Origin: Candidatus Pacearchaeota archaeon UBA92
GTDB taxonomy: Archaea; Nanobdellota; Nanobdellia; Pacearchaeales; GW2011-AR1
Direction of reading: 5' to 3'
NCBI GenBank assembly: GCA_002497285.1
Contig: DANJ01000014.1
Location: forward strand, 34,089 to 98,088
DNA length: 64,000 nt
The stretch's first letter is position 1; every line of letters begins with the position of its first letter. Position numbers and translations under genes: made by a program. Below, in pieces: positions 16,432-64,000 of the stretch. Below the pieces are notes generated by a model. That model did no database searches. It had not been told where the DNA came from and saw nothing but the letters and a program-made list of their open reading frames with translations.

Positions 16432-16433
16432 AA

Positions 16434-18377: not shown

Positions 18378-18388
18378 GGAGAAAAAAT

Positions 18389-44752: not shown

Positions 44753-44753
44753 A

Positions 44754-46270: not shown

Positions 46271-46313
46271 AACAAGAACAAAGTAAAATAGTTTTTATAG
46301 CTTTCTAAGAAAA

Positions 46314-46955: not shown

Positions 46956-47143
46956 TTTCCATCTCCTTCTATAATCAAAGCAACATTTCCGCCGGAACTA
47001 ACCGCGCCCCCATTATCTGCAGGAGCAGAATTTTGTCCGACTGGTTTTAAACTAATTAAAGAAAAATTAAGAGCTAAAGAAACGACTGAAAAAACAATCG
47101 CCACAATTAAAAGTGTTACAATAATTTTCTGTGTCTTATTCAT
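46952..47143 (-). CDS. small membrane protein (about 63 aa from MNKTQK), first gene of the minus-strand surface operon
   Basis: MNKTQKIIVTLLIVAIVFSVVSLALNF single TM. The track ORF extends to 47194, but the internal Met at 47143 fits promoter spacing. Confidence 0.35.
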   Translation of the reverse strand: MNKTQKIIVTLLIVAIVFSVVSLALNFSLISLKPVGQNSAPADNGGAVSSGGNVALIIEGDGK

Positions 47144-47169
47144 CTCTTCTTCTCTCCACAAATAAATAA

Positions 47170-47290
47170 ACAAGATATATAAATCTTTCTCCAATTCAGC
47201 ATATACCTAAACACTATTGTCAATGCAGAAACAAAAGTGATTTTCTATAATTGTTTATTACGCCCAAATAGCAAAATTTATATATCCCAA
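47170..47290. promoter_or_regulatory. divergent intergenic region with two TATA-like boxes (ttatatatct for the minus operon, aatttatatatc for the plus gene)
   Basis: A/T-rich TATA-like octamers about 25-40 nt upstream of the respective ATGs (47143 minus, 47306 plus). Archaeal leaderless-type spacing. Confidence 0.2.
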
Positions 47291-47305
47291 ACACCTTATA
47301 AAAAC

Positions 47306-48346: not shown

Positions 48347-48392
48347 ATAAGCTCATCTAATTTCTATTTTAAGGTTATATTTTAAAAGACTT

Positions 48393-49595
48393 TTATTTAC
48401 TTCTTCCCTTCAATTTCTTTCTCAAGAAGATAAACCACAAGGCATTGACAATTATCAGCAAGACAATTCCAACGGCCAAAACAACAACTATCGGATTGCT
48501 GAAAAGACTTGAGCTACTTCCTTCTGAAATTACATAACCAATTCCAATAACATTTATTCTATTATTTGAAACATCAAGCTGTAACTCTCTCTGATCCGAC
48601 TTTGAACCATATCTTAAGAACAATGTCGCATCATAAACTCCTGCCTTAACTCCCTCACTATCCCAAAATGCAACCATCACCGACTTGCTCAATGCTGAAA
48701 TATCGTAAGTAGGAGACTTGAAGTCTGCCATGACTTCTCCTTTATTGTTATAAATCTGCATCTCGGCATAAGTTCCTGAAAGTTCTCTATTCCATTTATT
48801 CTCAACTAAAATCTCAAACTTTGCAATACCTCCTAATGAGAAATCATTTACAACTATACTGCTAACATCAAGAACTTGTTGTCCTAAATCAAACTCTCTC
48901 TCTAGTTTCAAAGTTTGTTCATCATAAACTAACGTTGCAACAGCCCTATATGGTCCAGGAGGAACGTCTCCTTTCCAAACAACTGCAACCTCTTTTCTCT
49001 CCCCACTTTTAATTTCAATCTGATTTGTAGTTACACTATCAATTTTCTCATTCAAAGAACTATAAATATCAATGTCTGCTCTAACTCTTACAAGATCTAA
49101 ATCTCCTCTGCTTGTAACTGGAATAACAAAGGTAACACTCCCATCAGCATCTGGACCAAGAACATCAAGGCTTGCCTCAGCATACTTTCCAGGATAGAGA
49201 ACGAATACATGAACTTGTGTAGCTACTGCAACGGCTGCGCCAATAAAAGCCCCTCCCGTTCCTGATTTCTTAGGAAGTTGAACAACAACAATTTCTCCTT
49301 TATGCAATCCTGGAGAAAGAGAATTAGGAATATCTATTTTATACTTCAATTTCTTCTCACTTTCTCCCGCAAGCATTTTAAATGAAACTTCAGAAACCGA
49401 AATACTTTCATTCAAGTCTCCTTGTATAAGAACTGCAAAGTCAGAGTCCTGTGCATCTGTATTAATGACAATGAATTCTATTTCTCTTGATGTTCCAGGA
49501 TTATAATCTACATCAGTCTTTCCAGGAGTTATTCCTATAGCAAAAACATTTGTTGCAAGTAAAATAAACAACAATATTAAACTAATTTTCTTCAT
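48393..49595 (-). CDS. type I membrane surface protein (start at MKKISLILLFILLATNVFA; C-terminal TM anchor)
   Basis: Signal peptide at the internal Met (49595). C-terminal VVLAVGIVLLIIVNALWFIFLRKKLKGRSK. Same architecture as the 42705-46270 proteins. Confidence 0.55.
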   Translation of the reverse strand: MKKISLILLFILLATNVFAIGITPGKTDVDYNPGTSREIEFIVINTDAQDSDFAVLIQGDLNESISVSEVSFKMLAGESEKKLKYKIDIPNSLSPGLHKGEIVVVQLPKKSGTGGAFIGAAVAVATQVHVFVLYPGKYAEASLDVLGPDADGSVTFVIPVTSRGDLDLVRVRADIDIYSSLNEKIDSVTTNQIEIKSGERKEVAVVWKGDVPPGPYRAVATLVYDEQTLKLEREFDLGQQVLDVSSIVVNDFSLGGIAKFEILVENKWNRELSGTYAEMQIYNNKGEVMADFKSPTYDISALSKSVMVAFWDSEGVKAGVYDATLFLRYGSKSDQRELQLDVSNNRINVIGIGYVISEGSSSSLFSNPIVVVLAVGIVLLIIVNALWFIFLRKKLKGRSK

Positions 49596-50082
49596 TTTCT
49601 CCTCCAACAAATTTATTTCCAGAAACTTCTTTTCCCTCGTCAACTCGAAGAACAACACTTCCACTAAGCTCATCATTCTCATAAATATCCACATTGAGAA
49701 CATTATTACCAGCATTTACAACTTCATAACTATCCTCTCCTAATGACTTAACTTTTAAAGCAATCCCAGAAACAATGGTTAGTTTTCTCACCTCGCTTGA
49801 CAATGGTCCTTGAACCTTCCAGTAATAAACTCCCGACTTCAAATTTATCACTAAATTGTCCTCTGCAAAGATTTCCTGAGGTGAAGTGAAAGAAGGATTA
49901 TCATCTAAAAGTATCAAATTAGCATTATTAAATTCAAATAGTACGGAAGAATTAGTTGTTTCATATCCATTAACAGGTGAAATAACAAGCGGCGTCACAT
50001 AACCAACTACAAAAAATAAACTGATTAAAGTTCCAACTATTATAACAAAATCAATCGCCAAAATATGTCTATTCGTTATCAT
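49582..50082 (-). CDS. small N-terminally anchored surface protein (166 aa)
   Basis: TM ILAIDFVIIVGTLISLFFVVGYV. Stop overlaps the downstream start by 14 nt. Start abuts the giant gene's stop. Confidence 0.45.
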   Translation of the reverse strand: MITNRHILAIDFVIIVGTLISLFFVVGYVTPLVISPVNGYETTNSSVLFEFNNANLILLDDNPSFTSPQEIFAEDNLVINLKSGVYYWKVQGPLSSEVRKLTIVSGIALKVKSLGEDSYEVVNAGNNVLNVDIYENDELSGSVVLRVDEGKEVSGNKFVGGENEEN

Positions 50083-53000
50083 TTATTCTCCCAAGCTTGC
50101 AGTAAAGGTAATAGTTGAATTCCTAGCTCCTGCAAATTCCTCCGTAGGTACAGTAACATTGATATCAATTTCAGCCGTATCTGTAGCATTTGTATAATTT
50201 AGCTCCACTATAGCCAACACAGAAGAACCTGTGTCCGGAATTTGAGTATAGATAAATTTAGATAACAACCAGTTAAAAGAACTATTTTCAAGAGTGTTGT
50301 TGTCTGCTTTAAAAGTATAATAATTGCTTGGATTCGCCTGTGTAATCCAAAGACCAGTTGCACCTAAAGTAATGTTCACAAAAGAATTTCCATCATTCTG
50401 TAAAAGGAAAGGTCTCGGAGAATTATCAGAAGTATCATTGAATCCAAACTGTGCTATGGATCCAAAATCAACGGTTGAATTTAGAAGGCTTATCTGAATA
50501 AGTGCTGAAACATTTAAGGCAAAAGATTCAGTCCATGCAGAGAATTCTTCAGCATCATAAACCCTTATGCTCCAGTTATACCTATAAGAATTATCATACA
50601 AATAAACCAAATCCCCTCCGCCTATTGGTTCACTTCCTAAATCATAGCTGTTAGTATCAATAGTTTCTACATACCTTGTATCATCTCCTCTGTTTGTGCA
50701 TCCTCCTCCGGAAGTGTGAAAACAGGTGATGTTAAGGTCATAATAAAGCACGTCAGAATCATCATCACTGCTTGCACCCCATGCGAAAACAGGAGTCCTG
50801 TCTGTGGTCGACGCCCCATTAGCCGGCGTTGAAAGCGCAGGCACTATTGGAGGCGTGTTCAATATTTTAATTGTCTGCGTGGAATTAGCCCAGTTACTCT
50901 GTGAAATCTGATTATCGAACAATCTCAATGAACATGTCCAATTCTGTCCCTTTGTTGTGTTACCAGAATATAAAATTGCATCAAAGGCACTTCCATTTGC
51001 ATAGCTGTTATTAAATTCTGCAGTCAAATGTATCTTGCTTTCATTATACCATAGAACTGTAACATTCATAGCTTCATTGTCCTGGTCATATATTGTATCT
51101 ATACAATGTAGGTTCTGAGCTGTCTTGTTAGTTCCAAGAGTTGAATTTATTTCAGGAGTTGGAGTGTCTGGAGCTAAATTTCCTTGGGCAGAATTCACAT
51201 CAAAATCTCTAATCTGACTTTCGTTATTATTACCGCCATTATCGGTGGCATTCAATCTCCAATTATACTTGCCAACCCCAAGCGTGTATGTGTCAGCTAT
51301 TTCACTTGCAGTCAGAGTCTTATTCCAAATTGCAATTTCATCTATAGTTCCATTAAATCCTCCAGGAGCTCCAGAACCAACAGCAGTTTTAGTAGTAGAA
51401 CCAATTAGTAAGGGATTTGTATTACTAAATATTGAATACGTGCCTTCATTCGTACCAGCAACAGCTCCGTTAATATAAAATTTAATTGTCGTTGCATTGA
51501 CGGTAACTGCTACATGATTCCATTTATTTCTTGAAATAATATTTGAACTGGAATTGACAGGAGAGTCTGCTCCTGTATCAAACATCGTTCCATTTGATGT
51601 ATAATTAAACATGAACCAGAATCCATCATTTCCCCCTCCCGTCTCATCATCCTTAGAGACTATAAATCCATCATATCCATCTAAGTTAGGATATATCCAA
51701 ACCATAACAGTTAAATTTGAGACATTTAACAAAGCACCGCTTGGAGAAGACAAATAACTGGTATAACTAACTCCTGGAAGAATAATTCCTCCGCCAAGCT
51801 TGCCGCCGCTTTCATTAACTAATGCACCTCCAGAAAGATTACCGCTGCCTCCATGATCACTATAATCATAATACCTTGTATCATTCTCCCCATACTCGCT
51901 TCTATTATCCAAATGCAGTAGCAGAACACTAAATTCATCTGGAATAATAACTGGAGATGTCCAATTATAAATCACAAAAGAATTATTAGGGATAGTATTT
52001 TGATAGATAAGCCCGTGCTTGTAAAGATTTGCCTGTAAACTTGAATTTATTCCGAATATTCTTGTCTTCAAAACATCATTATAAGTATCATTTACAGTCG
52101 CATTTAAAATAATATTGAGAGAACCATAAGTAAATTGACTTGCATTATTAGGAGAATTTAATATAAAGTTTGGCGAGGGATTATTAAGGTTTGTAAATAC
52201 AATATTCAAATTTCTTGTAACATTGAGAGGTATTCCACTATCACTATATCCTATCTTGCTTGTATTCACACTATAATTGCTCTGAAGAATTACAACTCCT
52301 CCTGCTAAAGTTCCATTAACTATATATTCGGATATTCTATATCCCGCATCTCCAGTTGAATTTGTTAGTTCAGAGTCTGTAGCAGAACCGGTATTATTGA
52401 AAAAAGTCACGTTAACATTTGATACAAAATTACTCAATGTGTCATTAGTTTTAACATTCACAAACCACTGCTTATACAATCTTCCTCCAGGGTTGACGGT
52501 ATGGGTGCTGTAATTTGAGCTGACAAGATAAATACTCTGATTTCCGCTGATAACAATATTAGAAAGAAAGGACCCTGAAAGATTAGAATCAAGTATGCTA
52601 ACATTGTTACAGAATACACAGAAAATATTGTAATTTGACCTTCCTCCAGCCCCATCAGCCCCAAAAAATCGGGAGTTAGTAAGAATAATATTTTCTGATA
52701 AAATTTCTATATCTGCATCAAAAGCCTTGGAAACTGTATTATTATCAAAAACTAAACTAGATGTATTTATAGAAAGTCCTCTTCTCATATTAATTGCTTC
52801 TGTATTTCCAGTATAACTGACATAAGAATTCTTCAGGCTAAGATTAGAGCCCTGCCCAACTTGAAATAAAAATCTGAAATCATTATTTTTAGTTATGTTA
52901 GAATAATTAGCTGACAATGTTCCGCCATCAGAAACATAAAGATTGAACTCTCCGTCAAAATTCGAATTGCTCATTTCCAAAGTGCAGGATTCCAGAATTA

Positions 53001-56000
53001 ACTTTCCAATTGTTATGTTTATATTTGCATGACTAATATACCAGCATGGGTTCACAGAAGTACTAGAGTTAGTAAATACAGTATTATCATTAATCCTTGT
53101 ATAAATATCATACAGACTTTCAGTTGTGCTGACAACAATTGTATGAAAAACGCTGATTGGGAGATTCAATTCTTTATCCGTAGTCATATTAATACTTGCG
53201 CCAGTTGCAGGCTGATATCCAGCTTTAGAATAATTAACAGTATAGTTATTCCAAATAACCTTTCCAGCTCCTGTATCTGTATATTGAGTAAGATTATAGA
53301 ATACCGAACCTTGAGCATCTGTATTAATGGAAAATACCTTAGTTCCTGTCCTGTTTGTTGCAGTCATATTAACTCCTGAAATTACTGCTCCAGCACTTTT
53401 TACTGTCGCATTAAGTCTAAACTTTCTTTCTAAAACACTATTAGCTCCAACACTATATGAAGTAATGTCAGTAGAGTTGATAAGTGTAAAAGTATTATTT
53501 ATCTTTATATTGCTGAATGAAATCAAACTATCACTAATATTAATAGGGGTATTGAAGTTGGCTTCAGTAATACTTCCTTTAGAATCAACAAAGAAGTAAG
53601 GATCGCCAATAATACTAAAGTTATAATTATTTGCAATAACTACTGCATTCATAGATCCTACACTCAAATTAAGAGTTCCTGAAAGATACAATGAATATTG
53701 CCCCTCATAACTTGAATTAAAGAATACTGTACATCTTGAATCAACATCAAGTCTACCCGAATTAGTAATGTTCAAATTCGTATCAAGGGAAATACAACTA
53801 ACAAGAGTTGAATCTCCAACCTGGCACGTTGAAGTATAATTGGTTCCAAACCCAAGTTCCAGAGCTTTTGAAAGCAAATCATCACAAGTAAAGGTATTTG
53901 AAATTTTCAGATGTTCTGGTCTTGTAATAATTTTCCTTTGGTTAGTTTGATTCTTATTACCTGCCTTATCAACCACATAAGCAGTGAACGGATGAATTGT
54001 AGAATTAAGATTAGTAAAATTATTCTCATACCTATTGATTCCAGAGTCATACAAAGCAAGAATCTCGCTCTGATTTAATTCCCTAGAAAACATGAATACT
54101 TCATCCATCGTTCCGTTCATATAAAAAGTCTGAGTTCCAGATCTCCCAACATATAAATTATTTGTTGAATCTGATGTAACTGTATAAGTTCCATTTCCAT
54201 CAATTGTTCCATTCAGATACAAATAAGCATAACTTCCGTTATAAGTGACTGCAATATGATACCATCTTCCTGTACTAAGAGTTGTTGCTCCTGGTAATGA
54301 CTGCAAGCCCGGGTCAAAAAGAGTTAATTTATTACTTGCTACACGAAGAGAGACTCCATTACTTAAACTACCAGTTTTACCCATAAGTCCCTGATTGACT
54401 GTATCATTAAGATAAATCCAAGAAGCCCAAGTGAAAGGACCATTTAGAGTAAGACTATTAGCCTTTCCAAAATCAATATAATCTGTCGCGCCATCGAAAT
54501 AAAACCCATTCCCATAAAATCCAGCATCAACCTGAACAGCATCACCCTGTTTTGTACCATTATTGCCCCAAGAAGACAAGTCCACAACATCTCCAGAATC
54601 ATTAACATCATCCATCCTAGCCCACAAAACTAAACTCCTATTAAAATCAACAAATGAATAATGCCTATTCGCATCTGAAGTCGATAAGTTAACATATATT
54701 GCATTTCCCGTTATCGCAGTATCATTTGCAGGAGTTGGAGAGATAAAGCTCACTCCGGGTTTAGCGTCATCAAAACTGAAATTGACAAATTGGCTATAAT
54801 TTTTATTTCCTGTTGTATCATTAGCATAAACTCTGAAAATAAAACTTCCAGAGCCCAATGAAGAATTAGTTGCATTAAGTTCTACACCCAAAACTCCTCT
54901 GGAAAGATTAAGCATAGTTAAATTGTTAATTCCTTCATCAAGAGTATATTGGGCGCTTCCACTCTCACTCAAAGTTACATTAAATAACAGCGGTAAATCT
55001 GACAAGCCGTAATAAGCTCCTCCTTGAGGCTTACGAATAATCACTCCAGGAGCACTTGTATCTGACTCTGGCGGGGAAGTCAAGGGAAGCGTTATCACTT
55101 GCCAAGCAACATAAGCATCATTGTTTCCTGCTTCCCTGTGTAGGCTTAATGCTGTAGGACTGTCTAAAGCGTTTGTATAAAAAAGATTAGCAAAGATAAT
55201 TCCTGTTCCGGTGAGATTATTGGAAGCGAGCGAGAAGCTCCTGTTTTGAACGACAGAACTTATGGTTATAACATCATCCCCACTACTTAAATAATAAGAA
55301 GAACCATTCTGGACAACAGCTCCCGGGGTCGATATAACATAAGCCCCGATGTAAGCAGCACCTCCAGAACCTTCTCTAGCAACTCTAAGAGTTGTAGAAT
55401 TCCATATTTCTACAGTTGTACCTATCTCGGCCAGAACATTTGCCGTGGCTGTAAACGTCTGTGAATAATAGACCCATGAATTTGACGTGTTTATTACTGC
55501 TCCTATTGGCACAAAATCATTTGTTCCTAGGAGGTCTTCGACATGGTAGACTGTAGAGCCATCATTGAACTCAACAACAAAATAACTTATATTTCCTGCG
55601 CAAGCACCAGAATCAGCTCTTTGAAGGTTTAAGTTTGTGTTGCTAGTAAAATTAGCCGCCCAATATTGTTCGTTTTCATTGGCGGTATTAGTAGTTGTAC
55701 AGCTACCATAATTGACAAATGGAACTGTCTTAGTCAAATCAACAGAATCTAGAGTAATATCAAAATTAGTATCTGTTGTTATATATTCTACTGTTCCGTT
55801 TTGGACACTAATATTGTTTCCTTCTATAACATACCATGCAACTGTAGTGGTTGAAGAAGCGCCAACATTATTCAATGCAAATCTTGTAGTATTTACCCAC
55901 GTTGCATATATTCCAGTGTTATCAGGATCATCTCCTGAGGTTGTCGCTCTTCTTGAAAGAAGAATAAAAGATTTATTCAACTGTACTGCTTGGGAAATAT

Positions 56001-58803
56001 CTACAAAGCTCGGACTTGAAGCCATTGTTACCTCTCCACCTTCTGTCCACCACTGAACATTATTATCTACAGGGTCTATTATATGGTCAAACTCGACGCT
56101 TCCTCCAATAATTTTCAAGTCAAATGTATCCTGTTCGCCTTGTAATCCTGATAAAAATACTTTATTATACTCATTGTCATTTAGATTATCAAATTCTGCA
56201 ATTATTTCATTTCCATTAAATTCGTATACTTCAATTCTTGGTGTCCCATTGACTGCCCTTGGATAAACAGTTATATCGTTTTCACTTGTCAGATTTTTTT
56301 CAAAAGTAACTCGAACATAATGTGTATCTGGAATTATTTCAGTCCAGTTCCCATCCAATTCCCTCGCCTGCTCATATATATCCGAAATGAACGTTCTATT
56401 TTCATCCAAATGCTCCGCATTTGTAATTACAATAATATCAAATGTTTGATTAGACAAACGAGGAGCTATCCATTCAACGTAATCCATTATGCCGTTGCTA
56501 TTATTATCACTGGCGCCTAAAACAGAAAGATAGGTCATATTTTCAACCCAATAAATTCTTATTTTGGATGCATCTGCAATTCCAAGGCTTTCATTCAATT
56601 CTGTAAATGCAAGAACATTTTCATAATGCACATCGGCCGGTGAGAATATTCTTACCCTCTTGCCATTCACAAGTTCCTCTTCTTCAGAATAAGGCGCATC
56701 AGTATAATACTCTATTTCAACGGCATCTTCAGTTGCATTTAATTCTACAAGAACCTCCTGCGTTGCATTTTCCTCCTCGGAAACAACGAGTCCTGTAAAT
56801 CTCAAAAGCCCCCTAAAAAATTTAGAGAAAGCAGATTTCCTTTCAATATTCAATTCAGCAGTGACTTTTCCAGAAATAACATTTCCGGACAAGCCGACAC
56901 TTATTTCCTTTGGCTCCTCTGCATTTTCAACTGCATTTTCATCGCTTGCACCCGCATTTTCGACATTTGTATTTTCATTCTCGGCAATTGTATTTTCACT
57001 TTCAGGAACATTAGTTTGAGTTATATTTTCATCTGCAGGAGCAATTGTATTTTCCTCTTCTGCAATTGTATTTTCACCTTCTGAAGCATTTCCATTTTCA
57101 GCATTTGCATTTCCACTTTCGGAAGCATCTGCATTTTTACCTTCGGCAATTGTATTTTCATTTTCAGGAATATTTTCGTCCTCATCTAATTTTACAACCG
57201 AAATATTTCCCGCACTTAAAGGCAGTTCAACAACAACATTGGCAGGCCCTGCAATTTCAACTTTCTTATTCCACTTGACAGGTTTGCCCAAAACTGCAGA
57301 ATATTGGGTAATATTAACACTTACATTTTCAACCAAGCTAACATTTGCAAGCGTGTTATTTGCAAGAGTGATATTTTTATCTAGAAGAGTAACATTAGTT
57401 TCATTAAAATCAGGCAATGTAACATTTTCTTCGGGCAAAACAACTTCTTCATCAACGGCCTCAACAGAAATGTCTTTTTCGACATCAACTATGATTTCAT
57501 CGCCATAAACAAGTCTAACACTGAAGATAGAATTATTTTTAGCGACAAAGGCAAAAGATGACAAATCCACTTCAAGCTTCAAATTGCCACTGCTCAAATA
57601 TTCTTCGCCAAACCCTTCTTCGCTTACAGAATATTTAGTAGAAACTTCAAGATTATTTTTCTGAACCTTCAAGTCTATCTCGCCGTCGCCAATCTCTTCT
57701 CCATCAACATTAACACTCCCTGAAACTATTCTCGCACCCTCGCCTTCATTAATTTCATACTCAAAGCTATTGTCTTTGCTTACTTTTCCTGAAATGATAT
57801 TTCCTTCAGATATAACTCCTCCTGTAATTCCTGAATCTCCGCCTGAATCTCCGCCTGAATCGCCACTACTCGAATCACCTCCGGAACTTCCGCCATCCCC
57901 GCCAGAATCGCCGCTTGAACTGCCCGAATCGCCTCCACTTGAACTTTCACTGCCAGAGCTTCCATCGCTTCCTGATTCTGTTCCTGCACTTCCGCCCTCC
58001 CCCGAACTTCCATCCACTCCAGAATTCCCAGCATTTCCAGAGTCGCCAGTTCCTTCAGTCAAACCTCCATCATTAGAATTTGTAGAATCAACAGGCGCAT
58101 TTGTAGAATCGGAAGGTATATCTTCGGGAGGAAGAGCACCATCGGCAACAGAACCATCTCCAGATGTATCAACCCCAGTTTCTCCAGAAGCATCGGAACC
58201 AGAAGCATCGGAGCCAGAAGCATCAGTAGCACTATCTCCACTCTCTTCAGAAGTTGCATTGTCACCATTTGAGCCATCATTGCCCCCTTCAACTGCACCC
58301 TTGTCACTATTAAAAATTTCCAGCTGGAATTCAACATCAGGATAAACTTCTTTCTCTCCAATCAGCCCATATCCTTCTCCTGCCCCAGAAATACTTCTGC
58401 CTTCAGCATAAAAATCACCATCAGTCGTTTCAGAATTTACAAGCTCGGAAAGCAAAAACTCTTTCTCCTCTCCGTTATAACTGACAATTACTTTTGAATC
58501 TGCAGGAATCAATTCTCCAGATTTTAAATTTAGATTTAAATTTCCCGCAATTTCCTCGCCAATTTGATAATTTGATTTTATATCTAATGAAACTCTTCCG
58601 GTAAATCCTGAAAAAAAGAAAAATAAAAGTAAGAGAACTGCAAACAATCCAAAAAGAAAAATCGGTAAAATTAATCTTCTATTACTTCGAGGCGGTTCAC
58701 TGCCTAAATAAGTTGTAACGACCTCTCCATTGACTCTTTTAGTTTCATAATAATATGGACCAAACCTCTTTCCATCTTTGTAAGTATACTTCTTATGAAC
58801 CAT
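50083..58803 (-). CDS. giant (2906 aa) N-terminally anchored surface adhesin-like protein with Ser/Gly/Asp low-complexity stalk, beta-helix-like repeats and two LamG/ConA-like lectin modules
   Basis: N-terminal cytoplasmic segment plus TM (RRLILPIFLFGLFAVLLLLFFFF). SGD-rich stalk. LamG_3-like endings MDEVFMFSRELNQSEILALYDSG and IDEIAIWNKTLTASEIADTY. Very many N-x-S/T sequons. Intact single ORF of 8.7 kb. Confidence 0.7.
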   Translation of the reverse strand: MVHKKYTYKDGKRFGPYYYETKRVNGEVVTTYLGSEPPRSNRRLILPIFLFGLFAVLLLLFFFFSGFTGRVSLDIKSNYQIGEEIAGNLNLNLKSGELIPADSKVIVSYNGEEKEFLLSELVNSETTDGDFYAEGRSISGAGEGYGLIGEKEVYPDVEFQLEIFNSDKGAVEGGNDGSNGDNATSEESGDSATDASGSDASGSDASGETGVDTSGDGSVADGALPPEDIPSDSTNAPVDSTNSNDGGLTEGTGDSGNAGNSGVDGSSGEGGSAGTESGSDGSSGSESSSGGDSGSSSGDSGGDGGSSGGDSSSGDSGGDSGGDSGITGGVISEGNIISGKVSKDNSFEYEINEGEGARIVSGSVNVDGEEIGDGEIDLKVQKNNLEVSTKYSVSEEGFGEEYLSSGNLKLEVDLSSFAFVAKNNSIFSVRLVYGDEIIVDVEKDISVEAVDEEVVLPEENVTLPDFNETNVTLLDKNITLANNTLANVSLVENVSVNITQYSAVLGKPVKWNKKVEIAGPANVVVELPLSAGNISVVKLDEDENIPENENTIAEGKNADASESGNANAENGNASEGENTIAEEENTIAPADENITQTNVPESENTIAENENTNVENAGASDENAVENAEEPKEISVGLSGNVISGKVTAELNIERKSAFSKFFRGLLRFTGLVVSEEENATQEVLVELNATEDAVEIEYYTDAPYSEEEELVNGKRVRIFSPADVHYENVLAFTELNESLGIADASKIRIYWVENMTYLSVLGASDNNSNGIMDYVEWIAPRLSNQTFDIIVITNAEHLDENRTFISDIYEQARELDGNWTEIIPDTHYVRVTFEKNLTSENDITVYPRAVNGTPRIEVYEFNGNEIIAEFDNLNDNEYNKVFLSGLQGEQDTFDLKIIGGSVEFDHIIDPVDNNVQWWTEGGEVTMASSPSFVDISQAVQLNKSFILLSRRATTSGDDPDNTGIYATWVNTTRFALNNVGASSTTTVAWYVIEGNNISVQNGTVEYITTDTNFDITLDSVDLTKTVPFVNYGSCTTTNTANENEQYWAANFTSNTNLNLQRADSGACAGNISYFVVEFNDGSTVYHVEDLLGTNDFVPIGAVINTSNSWVYYSQTFTATANVLAEIGTTVEIWNSTTLRVAREGSGGAAYIGAYVISTPGAVVQNGSSYYLSSGDDVITISSVVQNRSFSLASNNLTGTGIIFANLFYTNALDSPTALSLHREAGNNDAYVAWQVITLPLTSPPESDTSAPGVIIRKPQGGAYYGLSDLPLLFNVTLSESGSAQYTLDEGINNLTMLNLSRGVLGVELNATNSSLGSGSFIFRVYANDTTGNKNYSQFVNFSFDDAKPGVSFISPTPANDTAITGNAIYVNLSTSDANRHYSFVDFNRSLVLWARMDDVNDSGDVVDLSSWGNNGTKQGDAVQVDAGFYGNGFYFDGATDYIDFGKANSLTLNGPFTWASWIYLNDTVNQGLMGKTGSLSNGVSLRVASNKLTLFDPGLQSLPGATTLSTGRWYHIAVTYNGSYAYLYLNGTIDGNGTYTVTSDSTNNLYVGRSGTQTFYMNGTMDEVFMFSRELNQSEILALYDSGINRYENNFTNLNSTIHPFTAYVVDKAGNKNQTNQRKIITRPEHLKISNTFTCDDLLSKALELGFGTNYTSTCQVGDSTLVSCISLDTNLNITNSGRLDVDSRCTVFFNSSYEGQYSLYLSGTLNLSVGSMNAVVIANNYNFSIIGDPYFFVDSKGSITEANFNTPINISDSLISFSNIKINNTFTLINSTDITSYSVGANSVLERKFRLNATVKSAGAVISGVNMTATNRTGTKVFSINTDAQGSVFYNLTQYTDTGAGKVIWNNYTVNYSKAGYQPATGASINMTTDKELNLPISVFHTIVVSTTESLYDIYTRINDNTVFTNSSTSVNPCWYISHANINITIGKLILESCTLEMSNSNFDGEFNLYVSDGGTLSANYSNITKNNDFRFLFQVGQGSNLSLKNSYVSYTGNTEAINMRRGLSINTSSLVFDNNTVSKAFDADIEILSENIILTNSRFFGADGAGGRSNYNIFCVFCNNVSILDSNLSGSFLSNIVISGNQSIYLVSSNYSTHTVNPGGRLYKQWFVNVKTNDTLSNFVSNVNVTFFNNTGSATDSELTNSTGDAGYRISEYIVNGTLAGGVVILQSNYSVNTSKIGYSDSGIPLNVTRNLNIVFTNLNNPSPNFILNSPNNASQFTYGSLNIILNATVNDTYNDVLKTRIFGINSSLQANLYKHGLIYQNTIPNNSFVIYNWTSPVIIPDEFSVLLLHLDNRSEYGENDTRYYDYSDHGGSGNLSGGALVNESGGKLGGGIILPGVSYTSYLSSPSGALLNVSNLTVMVWIYPNLDGYDGFIVSKDDETGGGNDGFWFMFNYTSNGTMFDTGADSPVNSSSNIISRNKWNHVAVTVNATTIKFYINGAVAGTNEGTYSIFSNTNPLLIGSTTKTAVGSGAPGGFNGTIDEIAIWNKTLTASEIADTYTLGVGKYNWRLNATDNGGNNNESQIRDFDVNSAQGNLAPDTPTPEINSTLGTNKTAQNLHCIDTIYDQDNEAMNVTVLWYNESKIHLTAEFNNSYANGSAFDAILYSGNTTKGQNWTCSLRLFDNQISQSNWANSTQTIKILNTPPIVPALSTPANGASTTDRTPVFAWGASSDDDSDVLYYDLNITCFHTSGGGCTNRGDDTRYVETIDTNSYDLGSEPIGGGDLVYLYDNSYRYNWSIRVYDAEEFSAWTESFALNVSALIQISLLNSTVDFGSIAQFGFNDTSDNSPRPFLLQNDGNSFVNITLGATGLWITQANPSNYYTFKADNNTLENSSFNWLLSKFIYTQIPDTGSSVLAIVELNYTNATDTAEIDINVTVPTEEFAGARNSTITFTASLGE
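56870..57190. repeat. in-frame short tandem repeats (ENTIAE-type) inside the giant gene
   Basis: gcaattgtattttc recurs four or more times (56984, 57041, 57062, 57139), encoding ENTIAE/NENTIA units. Confidence 0.5.
57820..58260. repeat. low-complexity codon repeats (SGD/SGS and GSDAS units) inside the giant gene
   Basis: cctgaatctccgcct x3 and agaagcatcgga(a/g)cc x3, encoding SGDSGG... and GSDASGSDASGSDAS. Confidence 0.5.
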
Positions 58804-58923: not shown

Positions 58924-60846
58924 TTAAAAGTAAATTCCGGTCTCGTTAAATTCAACATCTACTCCGCCACTGTTGTTGAAATATCCATCGCCACAATAAT
59001 CTAACTCTCCGCCATCAACCAGTCCATCATTATCATTATCCAATGTATCAGAACATTGCTCATATGTCGTAGGAATTGCCGGAACTCCCTCACTCAAATT
59101 CAGCCTTCCTATTTCATCATCACTTGCATTAAGGAAAACATAAGTATCGGTGCCTATAAGCCTTATCTTTGAATATCCCTTTGATTCATCCGTAAATCTC
59201 TTATATCCATCCCTTGCATACTGCCTTGCCCCTCCGTTGAAGTTAGTCATAGCTTCCAACCCAAAATTAACTTTAAAAGTAAGTTTTTTAGCAGGCACCC
59301 ATGAAGCCCAGGCGATAGAATCAAATCCCTCAAAGAATGAATGCGTCAAAGATGAAGGTATAAAATATTTCTGATAATCTGTAGTATAAAAATAAAATGG
59401 TCCTCCATATTCTGTAGATGAAAGCCCTTTACCCATGATTCCATTATCTTTCCATAAATCTCTTATCCATTGCGCAACATATCCATGATCTTGATAGTAA
59501 TTTGACCTAAAGTGTATATCAAGGTAATCATAATAAGATGAGGAGTTTATTATGAAGTCTTCTATTTTCTCAACCGAACTTTCATCAATATCTTTAGGTG
59601 TGTTGTTTATAATCCCATTTTCAAGAAACCCATCATAAGTTATGTTCTCAAGATTAAATCCTCTCTTTAAAGCAAAATTATCTACTCCTGTCAATCCATA
59701 AGTTATCATTGGAAGTCTTTCTTCTCCAGGATTCAGGCTCTCTTGAGCTTCCTGCATTGCAGAATAAGTTAAGTTCATCAACTTTATCATGCTTTCAAAC
59801 TTAACCTCCTGGATCGTGTTCCTAGGGTCGCAAGTCGGATTACCTGTAGTGTTAACAACAAACTGATGACTCCATTCATTCCCTAATTGTATCCCTGCAA
59901 GAACTGATTCCGACCCGTTATTTACAGGCTGCACATAATACTTGTCAACGACAAACTTAACATAATTTGTCCATTCGGCTTCATTCTTAGGATAAGAATC
60001 TCTTTCATCAATACTTCTCTCTCCAATTTGATAAGAACATGTACTTCGGTTAGGGTCATTTGCCTTTATTGTCAAAAGGATTTTAGTATTCTCGCTTTTA
60101 TAGAATAAAGTTGCATTATTAAATATATCTTCCTTGAAACTCCCATCCCCATTATAAACATTATGCCATGAGATTATTAGTCTATGAAACTCTGCCCCTA
60201 CTGCCGAAGTAGCTGGAAGATGTAAAGCACCGACACTATGAAACCCTATATAAGGCATAGGCTCTATATTTGAATTAATCAAACCATTTCTTATTCTCGT
60301 GCAATTATCCTCAAAATCGTCAAGATAAACTATTCCTTTATTTATCTCACATCCATCTCCTTCAGTTTCATTACCTTCCCCGAGCCCTGATAATTCTTCA
60401 GAGCATGAAACAGAAGCGCCGGTAAATCCACAGATATTATTTCCAAGAACTGAAGCGACATCAACACTCACAATCTCTCTCCCAGAGCGGTTAAAATCAA
60501 ATATATAATTCTTAGATCCAAATTCTCTCGGAACGCTATTATTCGACAAAATAAAAGTCTTGCCCTTAGAATCCTTAAACAAAAATTTCAGTTCACTAAT
60601 CTGCGAACTACCTATTCCCCTATTAACCTTTACAGAATAGATTGCCTCTCCCGAATCGCTACAACTCTTTACAGCTAAATCAAGTTTGGCGCAAACAATT
60701 AAATTATTTATCGAACCATTTTCATTCGAACCAAGTTTTTCAAGCAATAAAGGCTGAACAAAAAGCCAGATTATTGAAATAGAAATCAAAGAGATGAGAA
60801 TTATGAGAACAATCGCAATTATCTCACTCAACCCCCTCTTTAACAT
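58924..60846 (-). CDS. exported protein with class III (prepilin-type) signal peptide, pilin-like N-domain, TIM-barrel glycoside-hydrolase-like domain (GNEW motif) and C-terminal Ca-binding DxDxDG-like module
   Basis: MLKRGLSEIIAIVLIILISLISISIIWLF; C..LDL.V..C N-domain; AGIQLGNEWSHQF (clan GH-A-like acid/base NE); C-terminal CSDTLDNDNDGLVDGGELDYC. Confidence 0.65.
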   Translation of the reverse strand: MLKRGLSEIIAIVLIILISLISISIIWLFVQPLLLEKLGSNENGSINNLIVCAKLDLAVKSCSDSGEAIYSVKVNRGIGSSQISELKFLFKDSKGKTFILSNNSVPREFGSKNYIFDFNRSGREIVSVDVASVLGNNICGFTGASVSCSEELSGLGEGNETEGDGCEINKGIVYLDDFEDNCTRIRNGLINSNIEPMPYIGFHSVGALHLPATSAVGAEFHRLIISWHNVYNGDGSFKEDIFNNATLFYKSENTKILLTIKANDPNRSTCSYQIGERSIDERDSYPKNEAEWTNYVKFVVDKYYVQPVNNGSESVLAGIQLGNEWSHQFVVNTTGNPTCDPRNTIQEVKFESMIKLMNLTYSAMQEAQESLNPGEERLPMITYGLTGVDNFALKRGFNLENITYDGFLENGIINNTPKDIDESSVEKIEDFIINSSSYYDYLDIHFRSNYYQDHGYVAQWIRDLWKDNGIMGKGLSSTEYGGPFYFYTTDYQKYFIPSSLTHSFFEGFDSIAWASWVPAKKLTFKVNFGLEAMTNFNGGARQYARDGYKRFTDESKGYSKIRLIGTDTYVFLNASDDEIGRLNLSEGVPAIPTTYEQCSDTLDNDNDGLVDGGELDYCGDGYFNNSGGVDVEFNETGIYF

Positions 60847-60887
60847 GCCTGATTAAGCTAAAATGATTATATAAATCTTAATAACAT

Positions 60888-61268
60888 TTAAAAAAATCTT
60901 CCTCTTTTCATATTCGCAAATTTCCTATGCATAATCTCAACATTCCTGTCGCAGACAAAATCGTGCTGCCTGAAACCCCCGCCGAAAGTTTTAGGAATAT
61001 GCATAAGCTCATGTATAATCACCTTGTCCTGTTCATCTTTATTCATCCGTTCAAATCTCTCCAAAAATTCTATTGCATAATGCGCCTTAACTCCTATTGC
61101 CTTCTGCATTAGCTTTCCTATTGTATGACAACGCGCGATAATCCTCTTAGTTGAACTTCCAGAACTCCTAAAACATTTCACCCTCTCAATGGCTATATGC
61201 TCCATCTCAAGGAATTTCGCAATTTCTTCCATCCTATTTTGTAAGTCTTCAGCGTATTCGTATTTCAT
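60888..61268 (-). CDS. DUF45/YgjP-like HExxH metal-dependent hydrolase (SprT-like fold)
   Basis: VKCFRSSGSSTKRIIARCH (like RxWGSCS..G.IRLN) followed by IIHELMHIPKTFGGGFRQH (HExxH...H). Confidence 0.5.
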   Translation of the reverse strand: MKYEYAEDLQNRMEEIAKFLEMEHIAIERVKCFRSSGSSTKRIIARCHTIGKLMQKAIGVKAHYAIEFLERFERMNKDEQDKVIIHELMHIPKTFGGGFRQHDFVCDRNVEIMHRKFANMKRGRFF

Positions 61269-61753
61269 CTAAATTTTTCAAACCACCCTTTCATATCTTT
61301 CAATACATCATCAGAATTTGTATCAATCTTCTCCAACAGCTGTTTTTCATTAAACCAGCCAACTTGGGCAACCTCATCTTTATTAATTTTAAGTTTGTCT
61401 AAATCAATATCTTTTTTTAGGATAAACCATTGAGTAAAATGTTTATATTGTCCTAAAACCAATTCCTTGAATCCCTTTTTGGGATTAATATTCTTCAATC
61501 CAAGCTCTTCTTCAGCTTCCTTAACAATATTTGATTCATAGGTCTCTCCCTCTTCAATAGTCCCTGCAACTGCAGGACCCCATTTTCCAGGATTTTGTTT
61601 TTTACTCAAAGCTCTGCGAGCCAGCAATATTTCTTTTTTATTATTCAAAACCCATAAAGCAGAAACTCGGTAAATGTCCTTGGAATAATCTAACGCCTCC
61701 CTTTCTTTTGAGTCAATAACATTATCCTTATCATCAACAATAATTATTTTCAT
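61265..61753 (-). CDS. NUDIX hydrolase
   Basis: Nudix box GKWGPAVAGTIEEGETYESNIVKEAEEELGL (GX5EX7REUXEEXGU pattern). Confidence 0.75.
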   Translation of the reverse strand: MKIIIVDDKDNVIDSKEREALDYSKDIYRVSALWVLNNKKEILLARRALSKKQNPGKWGPAVAGTIEEGETYESNIVKEAEEELGLKNINPKKGFKELVLGQYKHFTQWFILKKDIDLDKLKINKDEVAQVGWFNEKQLLEKIDTNSDDVLKDMKGWFEKFR

Positions 61754-61968
61754 TCTTTCACCTCTATAATTTTATCTCTGCTTTTGGGATTTTTAATCTT
61801 TATGGCTCTAAAATTCACGCCCAATTTCTTAGCCAACAGGTTAATCAGCCTTTTATTTGCCTTCCCGTCTTCAGCCCTTTCCTTCAGGCTAATAAGATAT
61901 TTATCCTCTGCAATTTTCTCAATGCTCTCTTCCTTCATCCCCGGTTTAACTTTGACATAAATTATCAT
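61750..61968 (-). CDS. DUF167/UPF0235 (YggU-like) small protein
   Basis: VKVKPGMKEE..I.L.ERAEDGKANKRLINLLAKKLGV....IKIKNPKSRDKII matches the DUF167 pattern (V.VKP.AK.......I.....P.DGKAN..LI.FLA..L.V......I..G..SR.K.I). Confidence 0.65.
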   Translation of the reverse strand: MIIYVKVKPGMKEESIEKIAEDKYLISLKERAEDGKANKRLINLLAKKLGVNFRAIKIKNPKSRDKIIEVKE

Positions 61969-61969
61969 T

Positions 61970-64000
61970 TTAGAACGTAAATATCCAATTATTTTCAGAA
62001 AATCCTTCAGGGTCTATGCAGTTTAGAGTCTGCCTTTTTTGACCATTGCACTTAGTAGGATCCGCTAAATTGTAATAATCATAACATCCTGAATCAGCTT
62101 GATCAGGTAAACCATCTCCGTCATTATCCATTCCATCAGAACATTGGTACAAGCTCGGATATGGGGGCAAGTCCTTGCTAAGATTAAGTTCTTTCTCAAC
62201 AGCTCCAATCTTGAAAGATAATAATTCTCCATGTCTGGAGACCGTATCAAAATTCTTAGACAAGCCCTGAAAGTAAGTGTAATTATAGATTTGCGGAAGC
62301 TGATACCCAGCGCCCCCGTTAAACTTCATGGATGTCTGCAGCAGGTTAGGTGATGCAGGAGAAGGATTCCAGTTTCCCCATACAATTGCATCAAAGCCTG
62401 AATGATAAGCAACTGCCTGTGCTGCTTTGATATTATAACTATGGAGGTCATAACTGTAATTGTATATTGGATTCGCAAACTCGGTAGAGATAAGCCCTTT
62501 TCCCGTTATTCCATTAAGTCTCCACGTGTCCCTGACGAAATTAGCCACATATCTTGCGCCCTCTGGGGATTGGAAATATATATGTGCATCAAAATAATCA
62601 TAAAATGCAGAACCATTGACCACGGCAGATTTCGCACTAGTTATAGGGTCCTGCTTAACACTCTGCCGGGTTGCGATTGTGATTCCATTCAGCCCGTTAT
62701 TAGTTTTATAATATATTCCATCGTATTTCCATCCCTGCTCATCATAGCCTGCTCCAAGAGCCATGTTTGGGGTATCGGAAATCGCAAAAGCTATCACTGG
62801 AATATTTGGGGATACCTCTTTTATAAAATTGTAGCTTAGGTTCATAAGGTCAAGAATAGCCTGTTGTTCTTCTTCCTGTGTATATCGGCCATATGACTCA
62901 TTGACCTTAAATTGATGTCCCCATTCATTACCGACCTGGATGGCGACAAGAACTCCCTGATGCTCTGGAGTAGGATTGGCATAATACCTATCAGTAACAT
63001 TTTTTAGATAATCAACCCAATCATCTTCCTGACCAAATTTAGGCCAGGAATCATCCTGGAGTAAGGTCTGAGAATTTGGATTAAATTCAATCTCAGAACG
63101 GATAGGGTGATTAGCTCTTAAAGTCAAAATTACTTTCATATTTGCAGCCTTGTATCCAACAATTTTCTGGTCAAGTTCAGTAAAATCAAGCGGTGCATCC
63201 AATTCTAGAGTATCATACATTTCATACCACTGTATTATGTCCCTTCCATAAGAAGCTCCTGTTGCTGCAGCTCTGCTCCAATCAGATCCTATAACTCTCA
63301 AGCCTGCTGAAGGGATTTTGTCTACTCCGCTGGCAACAAGCCCATTTCTCGTTCTTGTGCATGTTGATTCATCAAAGTCTGATAAAGGAATGATAGTTAT
63401 ACCAAAATCATCGCAAGATTGACCCAATTGCCCTTCTAATTGACAAGTAGAGCTACATCCATCACCATCCTCAATATTCCCGTCATCACATTCTTCTCCT
63501 ATTTCTTTATTTCCATTACCGCACTCGATATTAGATTCGGGCTCTTCCAAACAGTTTACAGGCGTATCCGTAAACTCACATGCTTCTCCGTTTTGAAATA
63601 TAATTGTTGTCCTGACATTTTTAGGAATCTGTTCGAACTTATCCAAACTAAAGACTATTGTTGAATGTCCAAATTCATTAGGAACTTCCCCTCTTAAGGA
63701 ATCTTTTAAGAATAGATTGGAAACACTTCCATCAAACTTAAAAGCCAAACTAGATATCTCTTGTTGTCCCACTCCTCTGCCAACTCCAACCTTTACCGAG
63801 CTTTCGTTATAAAAACATGAATCTGTTCTAATATCCAATTCAGCACATGAAATAAAACTTGTAAGTTGCCCATTATCTTCTCCGCTTCCAATTATTCCAA
63901 TTATAGAAGGTTGAATAAAAAGCCAGATTATTGAAATACTTACAATAGAAATTAATAGTAAAAGGAGAACAGTTACAACACCCGACAGCCCTCTTTTTTG
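61970..64000 (-). CDS. exported protein with class III signal peptide, pilin-like N-domain and GH-like TIM-barrel domain (paralog of 58924..60846); N-terminus runs off the window
   Basis: Reverse translation of 63839..64000 continues the ORF upstream of the track's Met: QKRGLSGVVTTVLLLLISIVSISIIWLFIQPSIIGIIGSGEDNGQLTSFISCAELDIRTDSC. Then VAIQVGNEWGHQF and C-terminal CSDGMDNDGDGLPDQADSGCYDY. Confidence 0.65.
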   Translation of the reverse strand, partial: QKRGLSGVVTVLLLLLISIVSISIIWLFIQPSIIGIIGSGEDNGQLTSFISCAELDIRTDSCFYNESSVKVGVGRGVGQQEISSLAFKFDGSVSNLFLKDSLRGEVPNEFGHSTIVFSLDKFEQIPKNVRTTIIFQNGEACEFTDTPVNCLEEPESNIECGNGNKEIGEECDDGNIEDGDGCSSTCQLEGQLGQSCDDFGITIIPLSDFDESTCTRTRNGLVASGVDKIPSAGLRVIGSDWSRAAATGASYGRDIIQWYEMYDTLELDAPLDFTELDQKIVGYKAANMKVILTLRANHPIRSEIEFNPNSQTLLQDDSWPKFGQEDDWVDYLKNVTDRYYANPTPEHQGVLVAIQVGNEWGHQFKVNESYGRYTQEEEQQAILDLMNLSYNFIKEVSPNIPVIAFAISDTPNMALGAGYDEQGWKYDGIYYKTNNGLNGITIATRQSVKQDPITSAKSAVVNGSAFYDYFDAHIYFQSPEGARYVANFVRDTWRLNGITGKGLISTEFANPIYNYSYDLHSYNIKAAQAVAYHSGFDAIVWGNWNPSPASPNLLQTSMKFNGGAGYQLPQIYNYTYFQGLSKNFDTVSRHGELLSFKIGAVEKELNLSKDLPPYPSLYQCSDGMDNDGDGLPDQADSGCYDYYNLADPTKCNGQKRQTLNCIDPEGFSENNWIFTF

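Follow-up and report, generated by a model that had tools for sequence, protein, structure and literature searches.

Pilin-headed proteins that probably hold glycosidase-like enzymes on the surface or pili of a Pacearchaeota archaeon

The 64,000-nucleotide stretch analyzed here (the window) carries all three open reading frames (ORFs) named in the original prediction, which gave no strands: protein A (622 aa) is encoded on the forward strand at 6682..8550, and proteins B (640 aa; 58924..60846) and C (61970..64000) are encoded on the reverse strand. The start codon of C lies just past the window end, so that an ORF listing yields only an internal TTG start; read from base 64000 the protein begins QKRGLSGVV, and a longer contig (L001:6844-8877) contains the full start MQKRGLSG and the complete protein of 677 aa. 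Pairwise alignment gave 37% identity between the N-terminal regions of A and B (230 residues; E 2e-24) and 32% identity between B and C from end to end (E 3e-89); B and C have in common, in addition, the motif IQ(L/V)GNEW and a C-terminal CSDxxDNDxDGxxD...C motif. On this sequence evidence, the N-terminal region common to the three proteins is homologous and not a chance match. The span 58924..64000, under which the family had been listed, contains B and C but also two small unrelated genes, a PhageMetallopep gene (60888..61268) and a NUDIX gene (61265..61753). A fourth paralog, D, is located just outside the window; it carries a PhoPQ-related hydrolase-like cargo and has KEG, not KRG, at its predicted cleavage site.

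The N-termini of A, B, and C look like class III signal peptides, in which a short basic N-terminus running up to [KR]-[GA] precedes about 20 uncharged hydrophobic residues. The leader of A is MQKRG (6682..6696, forward strand), with a predicted prepilin peptidase cut after Gly5, and is followed directly by the hydrophobic α1 helix LSEVITTVLIILIVLISISIIWLFI (6697..6771; helix 8–38 in the AF2 model), which is almost identical in B and C. Leader and helix of B (MLKRG; residues 1–30; 60757..60846, reverse strand; AF2 helix 5–38) weakly match the BasA N-terminus, and those of C ((M)QKRG; 63914..64000, reverse strand) lack only the Met codon, which lies beyond the window end. A scan of all six frames of the window for [KR][GA] with an uncharged hydrophobic stretch behind it gave nine matches, of which only three open a long ORF with an xKRGLS leader, namely those of A, B, and C, for which a prepilin-type leader had been predicted. 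The TIGR02537 model (arch_flag_Nterm; cut-off 20) scored A at a borderline 20.5 bits over residues 3–30 and C below cut-off at 14.6 bits, and did not match B; it matched 24 of 40 small members of the family at E ≤ 0.01. The Pfam model Pilin_N remained far below threshold on A (E 0.2). Across the family the leader consensus is K-[RK]-G, then [LIQV]-S after the predicted site, and the strict pattern is present in 77 of 96 representatives, the failures being mostly truncated sequences or minor variants. Gly (n = 68) or Ala (n = 9) occupies the predicted site in these 77 sequences, with K/R-K/R ahead of it and L/I/Q/V, then S, behind it. Other secreted proteins in the window have ordinary Sec-type leaders, and no A-x-A type cleavage site was found after the hydrophobic core in A, B, or C.

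The globular N-domain behind the helix spans residues 31–155 in A (6772..7146, forward strand; Cys54/64/143/152), where alignments, profile matches, and predicted β strands delimit it, residues 31–151 in B (60394..60756, reverse strand; Cys52/62/139/148), where AF2 places seven strands at a pLDDT of about 70–85, and, by alignment, 63542..63913 (reverse strand) in C. Four Cys are invariant in all three proteins, which bears out the proposed common Cys-containing domain. A profile built from this domain without the leader retrieved the 96 representatives, three of them spurious, with the domain nearly always at residues ~30–155. About 40 of the homologs are complete proteins of 135–180 aa that end just past the fourth Cys, with downstream genes present on the same contigs. 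Such stand-alone proteins of pilin size, obtained by the N-domain-alone search that had been suggested as a check, support the interpretation as a pilin domain. The profile of the small homologs matched 8FK7, the pilin of the Pyrobaculum calidifontis type IV pilus solved by cryo-EM (PMC10334743), with an E-value of 7.7e-6; the match runs beyond the helix into the first strands, and six of eight weaker matches were archaeal pilins or archaellins. The AF2 model of B, of moderate quality (mean pLDDT 60.5), likewise contains the long N-terminal helix followed by the seven strands. The α1 helix with a small β domain and the homology to a filament subunit are features of type IV pilins, and judging from profile and model the N-domain appears to behave as an archaeal pilin domain.

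Beyond this carrier, a short linker leads into the cargo. It is unconserved and of low pLDDT in A (residues 156–169; 7147..7188, forward strand), acidic, Gly-rich, and variable in the alignment in B (residues 152–165; 60352..60393, reverse strand; pLDDT < 50), and a Cys-rich acidic repeat in C (63431..63526, reverse strand), which scored 34.8 bits with TIGR02232 (cut-off 20.8) and weakly matched DUF4215. The cargo of B (residues ~166–590; 59077..60351, reverse strand) and its paralogous counterpart in C (62201..63406, reverse strand) are predicted to be clan GH-A (GH39-like) TIM barrels, in agreement with the glycoside hydrolase-like fold first assigned to the GNEW domains of the two proteins; the predicted structure has the (β/α)8 fold. 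In the AF2 model of B, N323 and E324 of the GNEW motif (59872..59883) follow strand 316–321, and E479 of the STEYG motif (59404..59418) follows strand 474–477; the corresponding motifs of C are GNEW (62921..62932) and STEFA (62474..62488), all on the reverse strand. This arrangement corresponds to the acid/base Asn-Glu behind strand 4 and the nucleophile Glu behind strand 7 expected of clan GH-A, presuming that the strands are numbered correctly within the barrel. His445 of B is encoded within 59512..59523 (reverse strand). N323, E324, and E479 are invariant in a nine-sequence alignment of B/C relatives, and among 11 aligned relatives E479 is retained in 11 and E324 in 10, the exception (P0028) probably being misaligned at this position. 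Sequence identity to the solved clan GH-A chains is 8–14%, and a Pfam search of B and C gave no GH family at E ≤ 1; only a distant relative, P0027, came near with the Pfam GH39 model, at 25.5 bits for a cut-off of 26. Because no curated GH model (Glyco_hydro_39, Cellulase) is matched, B and C should not be filed as GH39 members.

In the C-terminal region behind the barrel, B (58924..59055, reverse strand) has an acidic double-Cys repeat with the sequence CSDTLDNDNDGLVDGGELDYC (58993..59055) and, ahead of its stop codon, a conserved tail with the sequence VDVEFNETGIYF (58927..58962); C (61970..62143, reverse strand) similarly has such a repeat (62084..62143), a tail, and the stop codon. The D/N/G/C columns of the repeat are invariant in the alignment. 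The DNDxDG motif, for which a Ca-binding module had been proposed, is thus present and conserved, but the matches to NF033662 (cut-off 41) stay below cut-off in both C (36.6 bits) and B (19.5 bits); the motif may bind Ca.

The cargo of A (residues 170–622; 7189..8550 including the stop codon, forward strand) combines a predicted glycosidase-like TIM barrel with a C-terminal β-sandwich and contains an invariant LD(T/F)E motif (D276 and E278; 7504..7521, forward strand). It matched no Pfam family, GH families included. Originally described as unrelated to the B/C domain, it is so by sequence, but its predicted fold is also that of a glycosidase-type barrel. Homologs without the carrier occur in many bacteria, where they are stand-alone secreted proteins or lipoproteins of glycan-degrading lineages, and homologs with the carrier occur in DPANN archaea only, a distribution that suggests that the cargo was grafted onto the carrier. 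The window contains a paralog of the A cargo (5081..6605, forward strand), whose ORF (5298..6605) is 61% identical to A. Ahead of it lies a disabled class III-like leader (5081..5297, forward strand): the upstream DNA, which a second assembly gives unchanged, translates in the ORF frame as KEG-ILTEK-stop-IFIIISLIIVISTLYFLIQ, and its sole ATG (MKRG) is in another frame. The globular pilin domain is absent from this paralog.

The same carrier is fused to a GH56 domain (E 1.7e-50) and to PhoPQ_related, LamG_3, β-helix/NosD, PKD, NHL, and phosphodiesterase domains in other members of the family, which was found in Pacearchaeota and Woesearchaeota. The proposed modular system is therefore far more modular than is visible from the window. 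From leader and N-domain to GNEW barrel and modularity, the predicted architecture held in every test run, whereas the accompanying bindosome analogy proved only partial and the supposedly unrelated domain of A needs the qualification given above.

Taken together, it is reasonably probable that A, B, and C, and also D, combine in modular fashion a complete type IV pilin-like head with an enzyme-like cargo held outside the cell. This tiny groundwater archaeon, a member of the Pacearchaeota (DPANN), probably displays sugar-cutting enzymes on its cell surface or on pili by means of pilin-headed proteins. A PibD/FlaK-type peptidase would cut the leader after the Gly of xKRG, and the mature protein would begin with a hydrophobic helix of ~25 residues and a small disulfide-stabilized β domain, together forming a complete archaeal pilin, whose natural C-terminus would be joined to the cargo by the flexible linker. 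The cargo would be a retaining clan GH-A (GH39-like) barrel in B and C, a glycosidase-like TIM barrel in A, and a PhoPQ-related hydrolase-like domain in D, kept outside by the pilin part, which would act either as a membrane-embedded, bindosome-like stalk or, in a type IV pilus, as a subunit that is minor or sits at the tip. The cargo would there cut extracellular or host-envelope glycans and may serve the carbohydrate scavenging first proposed.

Possibly, though we rather doubt it, the three proteins build no filament at all and are membrane-anchored stalks, either bindosome-like or monotopic ectoenzymes, in which the helix, with its leader processed or intact, tethers single proteins or small oligomers and the β domain provides the distance needed to bring the enzyme through the S-layer. 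The genomic context is in line with this explanation: the 64-kb window has no gene for a prepilin peptidase or a pilus ATPase and none resembling TadC, the Pfam families T2SSE, T2SSF, and Peptidase_A24 were absent within 10 kb at six related loci (L001, L005, L010, L011, L012, and L054), so that linkage to an assembly ATPase and platform (TadC/FlaJ) was seen at none of these places, and the carrier genes sit amid housekeeping genes. In archaea, genes for pilins and bindosome proteins frequently lie apart from those of the assembly machinery; type IV pilus loci have been reported for Pacearchaeota (PMC11291902), which speaks against mere stalks, and a preprint states that DPANN genomes lack type IV pilus components (10.1101/2020.05.14.094862). 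A subunit of 600 aa could not pack in a filament body, as was argued for PilB (PMC8179133), a bindosome filament has never been seen (PMC2910488), and the paralog at 5298 apparently once had the helix directly on the cargo, without a pilin domain. Against this, however, the carrier constitutes a full pilin, has many homologs that are stand-alone proteins of pilin size, and is homologous to the subunit of a real filament (8FK7); modules just as bulky do enter pili in the bacterial modular pilins (PMC8179133).

It is improbable that the barrels are catalytically dead GH folds serving as glycan-binding adhesin modules for attachment to a host or surface. Many relatives do bear clearly non-catalytic binding modules (LamG_3, NHL, PKD, β-helix) on the same carrier, the barrels reach no Pfam GH model, and the cargo of A has no designated catalytic residues; however, in B/C relatives the two carboxylates of catalytic type are conserved at the strand ends where they would be expected, a strong GH56 domain is found on the same carrier, and the bacterial homologs of the A cargo point to glycan degradation. 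An N-terminus of the ordinary Sec type, as signal peptide or signal anchor, followed by a lineage-specific surface domain with superficial pilin likeness, would fit the weak leader HMM scores and the generic nature of a short basic and then hydrophobic stretch, but is very improbable given the missing A-x-A type site, the different appearance of the true Sec substrates of the window, the strict conservation of G/A at −1 with K/R before and an uncharged helix of 22–25 residues after it, and the extension of the 8FK7 match past the helix.

For a modular pilin-like protein as favored here, several known systems invite comparison. Bindosome-type proteins, whose genes lie outside pilus clusters, have been proposed to functionalize a type IV filament machinery so that nutrients can be acquired, and the analogy drawn to them originally is only partial. 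It fails in that A, B, and C contain no substrate-binding protein (SBP) domain according to Pfam/HMM searches and have neither an ABC transporter nor Bas-like genes in the neighborhood; matches of the family to BasA and BasC cover the leader only and are far below cut-offs, so that the SBP cargo, adjacent ABC transporter, and BasEF/BasABC set of the Sulfolobus type are lacking. Moreover, the cargo of bindosome proteins is an ABC-type substrate-binding protein that, by the published descriptions, sits immediately on the helix, with no full globular pilin domain between, whereas A, B, and C retain this domain and carry enzyme-like cargo; the bindosome preprint mentions no hydrolases or enzymes. 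With archaeal type IV pilins (8FK7, a flagellar-like pilus subunit; Pilin_N/TIGR02537) the proteins share leader, hydrophobic helix, and a small β domain with intramolecular disulfide, but the DPANN family has four conserved Cys and a weak or no Pfam Pilin_N score. The B/C barrels resemble clan GH-A, especially GH39 (β-xylosidase 1W91, α-L-iduronidase, PslG), in the predicted (β/α)8 fold, the Asn-Glu pair, and the later-strand Glu, and differ from these enzymes by an extra N-terminal Cys-containing segment and the C-terminal acidic Cys repeat. The minor pseudopilin GspK of type II secretion and the tip proteins CofB/TcpB also have the pilin fold and an additional large domain and sit at the filament tip (PMC8179133); unlike A, B, and C they are bacterial, and in place of a glycosidase-like barrel their additional domain is either an insertion or serves structure only.

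Of the two analogies, that with bacterial modular pilins is closer than that with the bindosome. They include PilB (vWA module) and PilC (lectin module) of the Streptococcus sanguinis type IV pili (Raynaud et al., 2021; PMC8179133). The survey in the same study used the bacterial signature IPR012902, does not mention archaea, and predicted peptidase as the sole enzymatic function of modules. Both groups combine a class III leader, a small pilin module, a short linker, and a bulky functional module in many architectures, and LamG/PF13385 recurs often among the modules of either group; the carrier described here differs in being an archaeal pilin with an Ig-like β domain, and the cargo in being a glycosidase-type barrel. 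The pilin-fused glycosidase-like proteins are an archaeal counterpart of the bacterial modular pilins.

The three ORFs named in the original prediction are all present in the window, which has a G+C content of 34%; A and B are 100% identical to NCBI proteins of the MAG Candidatus Pacearchaeota archaeon CG1_02_32_132. Protein A is read from 6682..8550 on the forward strand (622 aa) and protein B from 58924..60846 on the reverse strand (640 aa). Protein C (61970..64000, reverse strand) has its start codon just past the window end; on the longer contig L001 it is complete with 677 aa and begins MQKRGLSG. The predicted common leader was recovered, as all three proteins open with xKRGLS(E/G) followed by a near-identical hydrophobic stretch of 25 residues, and so was the shared Cys-containing N-domain, in the form of about 120 homologous residues behind the helix with four invariant Cys. 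Sequence alignment gave E 2e-24 for A and B, while B and C are paralogous throughout (32% identity, E 3e-89). A six-frame scan for [KR][GA] plus an uncharged hydrophobic run yielded nine matches, only three of which represent an xKRGLS-type leader opening a long ORF; the other exported proteins of the window carry ordinary Sec-type leaders. The interval 58924..64000, where most of this family was placed, also holds unrelated genes (PhageMetallopep and NUDIX according to Pfam, and a small PF1765-like gene).

We conclude that the N-module, consisting of leader, helix and four-Cys globular domain, is an archaeal type IV pilin-like unit. A search already proposed in the original prediction, with the globular domain minus its leader as the profile (alignment A2), was run against 1.84 billion representative proteins and gave 96 matches at E <= 1e-3. 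The domain lies at residues ~30–155 in almost every case, directly behind the N-terminal segment. Three matches (P0052, P0054, and P0068) are internal repeats of huge unrelated proteins and were discarded as spurious; the remaining sequences, when read, have an uncharged helix behind an opening K/R-K/R-G-(L/I/V/Q)-S. The strict leader pattern is present in 77 of the 96 representatives, with Gly at position -1 in 68 and Ala in 9, and most of the others are minor variants or lack their 5' end. About 40 family members are complete proteins of 135–180 aa that end a few residues past the fourth Cys. Because these small members terminate at this point, the cargo, i.e., the large C-terminal domain of the longer proteins, is joined to a pilin-size protein at its natural C-terminus. 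Genes downstream of the small stand-alone members are present on their contigs; three small stand-alone homologs lie on contigs of just 0.7–1.7 kb. One further candidate, P0025, was rejected as a stand-alone pilin, since it makes up the front half of a PhoPQ-type fusion whose gene is split, and a word-indexed protein search with the small-pilin profile returned mostly LamG fusions on short contigs. Against the PDB, the profile of the small members matched 8FK7 (E 7.7e-6, spanning the helix and first strands), a type IV pilus subunit of Pyrobaculum calidifontis with a disulfide and an Ig-like domain (PMC10334743), and six of eight weaker matches are archaeal pilins or archaellins. TIGR02537 matches 24 of 40 small members; on A it scores 20.5 bits against a cut-off of 20, on C it stays below the cut-off, and B has no match. 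In the AlphaFold2 model of B, a helix (residues 5–38) is followed by seven strands at pLDDT 70–85.

Pfam and NCBIfam models found almost nothing in the large domains of the full A, B and C proteins, no curated glycoside hydrolase (GH) model was reached by B or C, and the B and A family alignments (A3 and A4) gave nothing useful when used for sequence-profile searches against the PDB. The GNEW motif of B, originally proposed as an acid/base-type element, comprises N323-E324 directly after the strand 316–321, and E479 (in STEYG) follows the strand 474–477. N323-E324, E479, His445, and Trp513 are invariant in the alignment of nine B family sequences, and E479 remains so once more distant relatives are included. 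An Asn-Glu pair after one barrel strand and a Glu after a later strand are the pattern of retaining clan GH-A enzymes. The closest approach to Pfam GH39 is that of a distant relative, P0027, with 25.5 bits against a cut-off of 26. The B/C cargo is predicted to be GH-A-like in its catalytic pattern, and it should not be filed in GH39. As for the putative Ca-binding module at the C-terminus, the motif CSDxxDNDxDG...C is conserved in the B/C family but falls below the NF033662 cut-off; it may bind Ca. Strong conservation extends to the last 12 residues of the family (58927..58962, reverse strand, in B; the C-terminus in C), which read VDVEFNExGIYF with D630, E632, F633, and F640 invariant.

The cargo of A belongs to a Pfam-orphan, glycosidase-like family that is scattered over many bacterial phyla. 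Its classification by sequence as a divergent GH56 or B-type domain was dropped, because hhalign of the A family with the B family or with a GH56-fused relative aligns the N-module only. A scan of the genome collection with a single protein gave no matches. A-type cargo without the pilin part, with Sec or lipoprotein leaders visible, was found in Balneolales, Bacteroidales, Kiritimatiellia, Victivallaceae, Planctomycetaceae, Arenicellales, Thiothrix, and Oscillospiraceae, among others. In the scan with the A family alignment (loci L013–L053), the family also turned up in Paceibacterota, Bdellovibrionota, and a Methanosarcinales MAG. Full-length matches including the pilin part occurred in Pacearchaeota and Woesearchaeota only. 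This taxon pattern fits a secreted bacterial-type enzyme that would have been grafted onto an archaeal carrier. The window also contains a "signal-less" paralog of the A cargo (5298..6605, forward strand), preceded at 5081..5297 by a disabled class III-like leader. Its own frame reads KEG-ILTEK-TAG(stop)-IFIIISLIIVISTLYFLIQ... upstream of the ORF and continues into the conserved LIAYEW strand; the sole upstream ATG (MKRG) is in another frame, and the globular pilin domain is absent between helix and barrel. The DNA of this region is identical in a second assembly. The ORF is probably a decaying copy or starts from an internal Met.

Pfam searches of the family members bore out the modularity of the system, with one carrier joined to many cargos. 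PhoPQ-related cargo occurs in P0023, P0044, and D, a fourth paralog of the source genome located about 2.6 kb past the window end (L001:3923-6217). D combines the leader MRKEGLS and the four-Cys pilin domain with a stretch of 25 or more Gly and a domain of ~570 aa; it has no Pfam match itself and shares 62% identity with P0023, a protein that passes Pfam PhoPQ_related. P0033, from a related archaeon, carries a GH56 hyaluronidase domain on the same pilin module (Pfam E 1.7e-50). GH56 is mainly an animal family and would not be expected on a DPANN pilin. Many family members have LamG_3 cargo, and others right-handed beta-helix/NosD, PKD plus disaggregatase-like, NHL propeller, or type I phosphodiesterase domains, while several cargo domains lack a Pfam match. 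The linkers between carrier and cargo vary as well, from short acidic stretches to poly-Gly, as in D, and Cys-rich acidic repeats (TIGR02232 in C). P0015 with A-type cargo (L011:10001-11935, a Woesearchaeota MAG) and P0007 with B-type cargo (L012:10001-12019, another DPANN contig) share one syntenic slot downstream of exosome, enolase, and ribosomal protein S2 genes, which suggests that cargos have been swapped at a conserved locus.

The strand of B also encodes, 120 bp downstream (50083..58803, reverse), a giant membrane-anchored surface protein of 2906 aa with two LamG_3 regions. At two other Pacearchaeota loci (L005:13981-; L054:11362-18822), pilin-module genes adjoin giant LamG or beta-helix proteins of 3466 and 2486 aa, in what looks like a recurrent surface-protein neighborhood. 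Directly downstream of the giant gene in the window, 42705..50082 (reverse strand) holds seven genes whose products have an N-terminal signal or anchor and mostly a C-terminal transmembrane segment; none gave a significant Pfam match. Elsewhere, six large genes at 12002..24185 (forward strand) resemble by eye a restriction-modification or defense island. They encode a tool-supported DUF2779 protein and, by eye, an SNF2-type helicase, a DNA methylase, a type III restriction-enzyme-like helicase, and two unknowns, and are followed by a serine-recombinase-like gene, also identified by eye (24241..24705).

On balance, we favor the view that A, B and C are modular pilins. A prepilin peptidase would take off MxKRG, with cleavage after Gly5 as judged from the leader motif, the processed helix plus beta domain would act as pilin, and the cargo would be presented at the cell's exterior. 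The pilin part could enter a filament as tip or minor subunit, a possibility that we regard as slightly disfavored: for bacteria, a location at the tips of pili has been argued for bulky modular pilins (PMC8179133), but genes for the ATPase, platform protein, and prepilin peptidase needed for assembly were found neither in the 64-kb window nor within 10 kb of six related loci, and the larger related loci have only housekeeping genes or giant surface proteins around the family members. The literature on type IV pili in DPANN is split. Their components were described as missing (He et al. preprint, 10.1101/2020.05.14.094862), two conserved type IV pilus loci were reported in Pacearchaeota and Woesearchaeota (Hamm et al., 2024; PMC11291902), and ATPases were noted in "nanoarchaea" without identifiable pilins (Makarova et al., 2016). 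That the pilin part instead remains in the membrane, like the substrate-binding proteins of the Sulfolobus bindosome, seems only slightly less likely than entry into a filament.

For modular pilins of an episymbiont, it is reasonable to guess at host or biofilm glycans as substrate. More speculatively, and with little confidence, the four-Cys family might constitute an unrecognized pilin repertoire of Pacearchaeota and Woesearchaeota, with pili tipped by interchangeable enzyme heads that serve as enzymatic grappling hooks, cutting host envelope or biofilm glycans for contact or feeding. Such heads may include GH39-like, GH56 hyaluronidase-like, and PhoPQ-related hydrolases and the Pfam-orphan GH-like family. 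The finding is of moderate interest by itself and would be of high interest if the enzymes sit at pilus tips. The genomes of DPANN archaea are tiny and the organisms rely on other cells, yet little is understood of how they contact, hold, and exploit their hosts. A pilin carrier that serves a dozen or more types of cargo, three different glycosidase-like folds among them, would amount to a compact set of tools for surface chemistry, and the family offers concrete proteins for testing. It also flags two glycosidase-like families outside Pfam coverage, one of them spread across many bacterial phyla.

That archaeal proteins other than pilins, binding proteins and proteases among them, can bear class III signal peptides has been known since Szabo et al. 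(2007; summarized in PMC2910488). A 2026 preprint predicted ~4,400 binding proteins and proposed functionalized filaments for scavenging; there, the cargo is described as following the helix directly, and hydrolases or other enzymes are unmentioned. In the limited library of literature searched, we found no report of a fusion between archaeal pilins and glycoside hydrolases. Bacterial modular pilins are well described, but archaea go unmentioned in the survey, which relied on a bacterial signature (PMC8179133). The proteins described here would carry the modular pilin principle over to archaea from bacteria, and to enzymes from binding modules.
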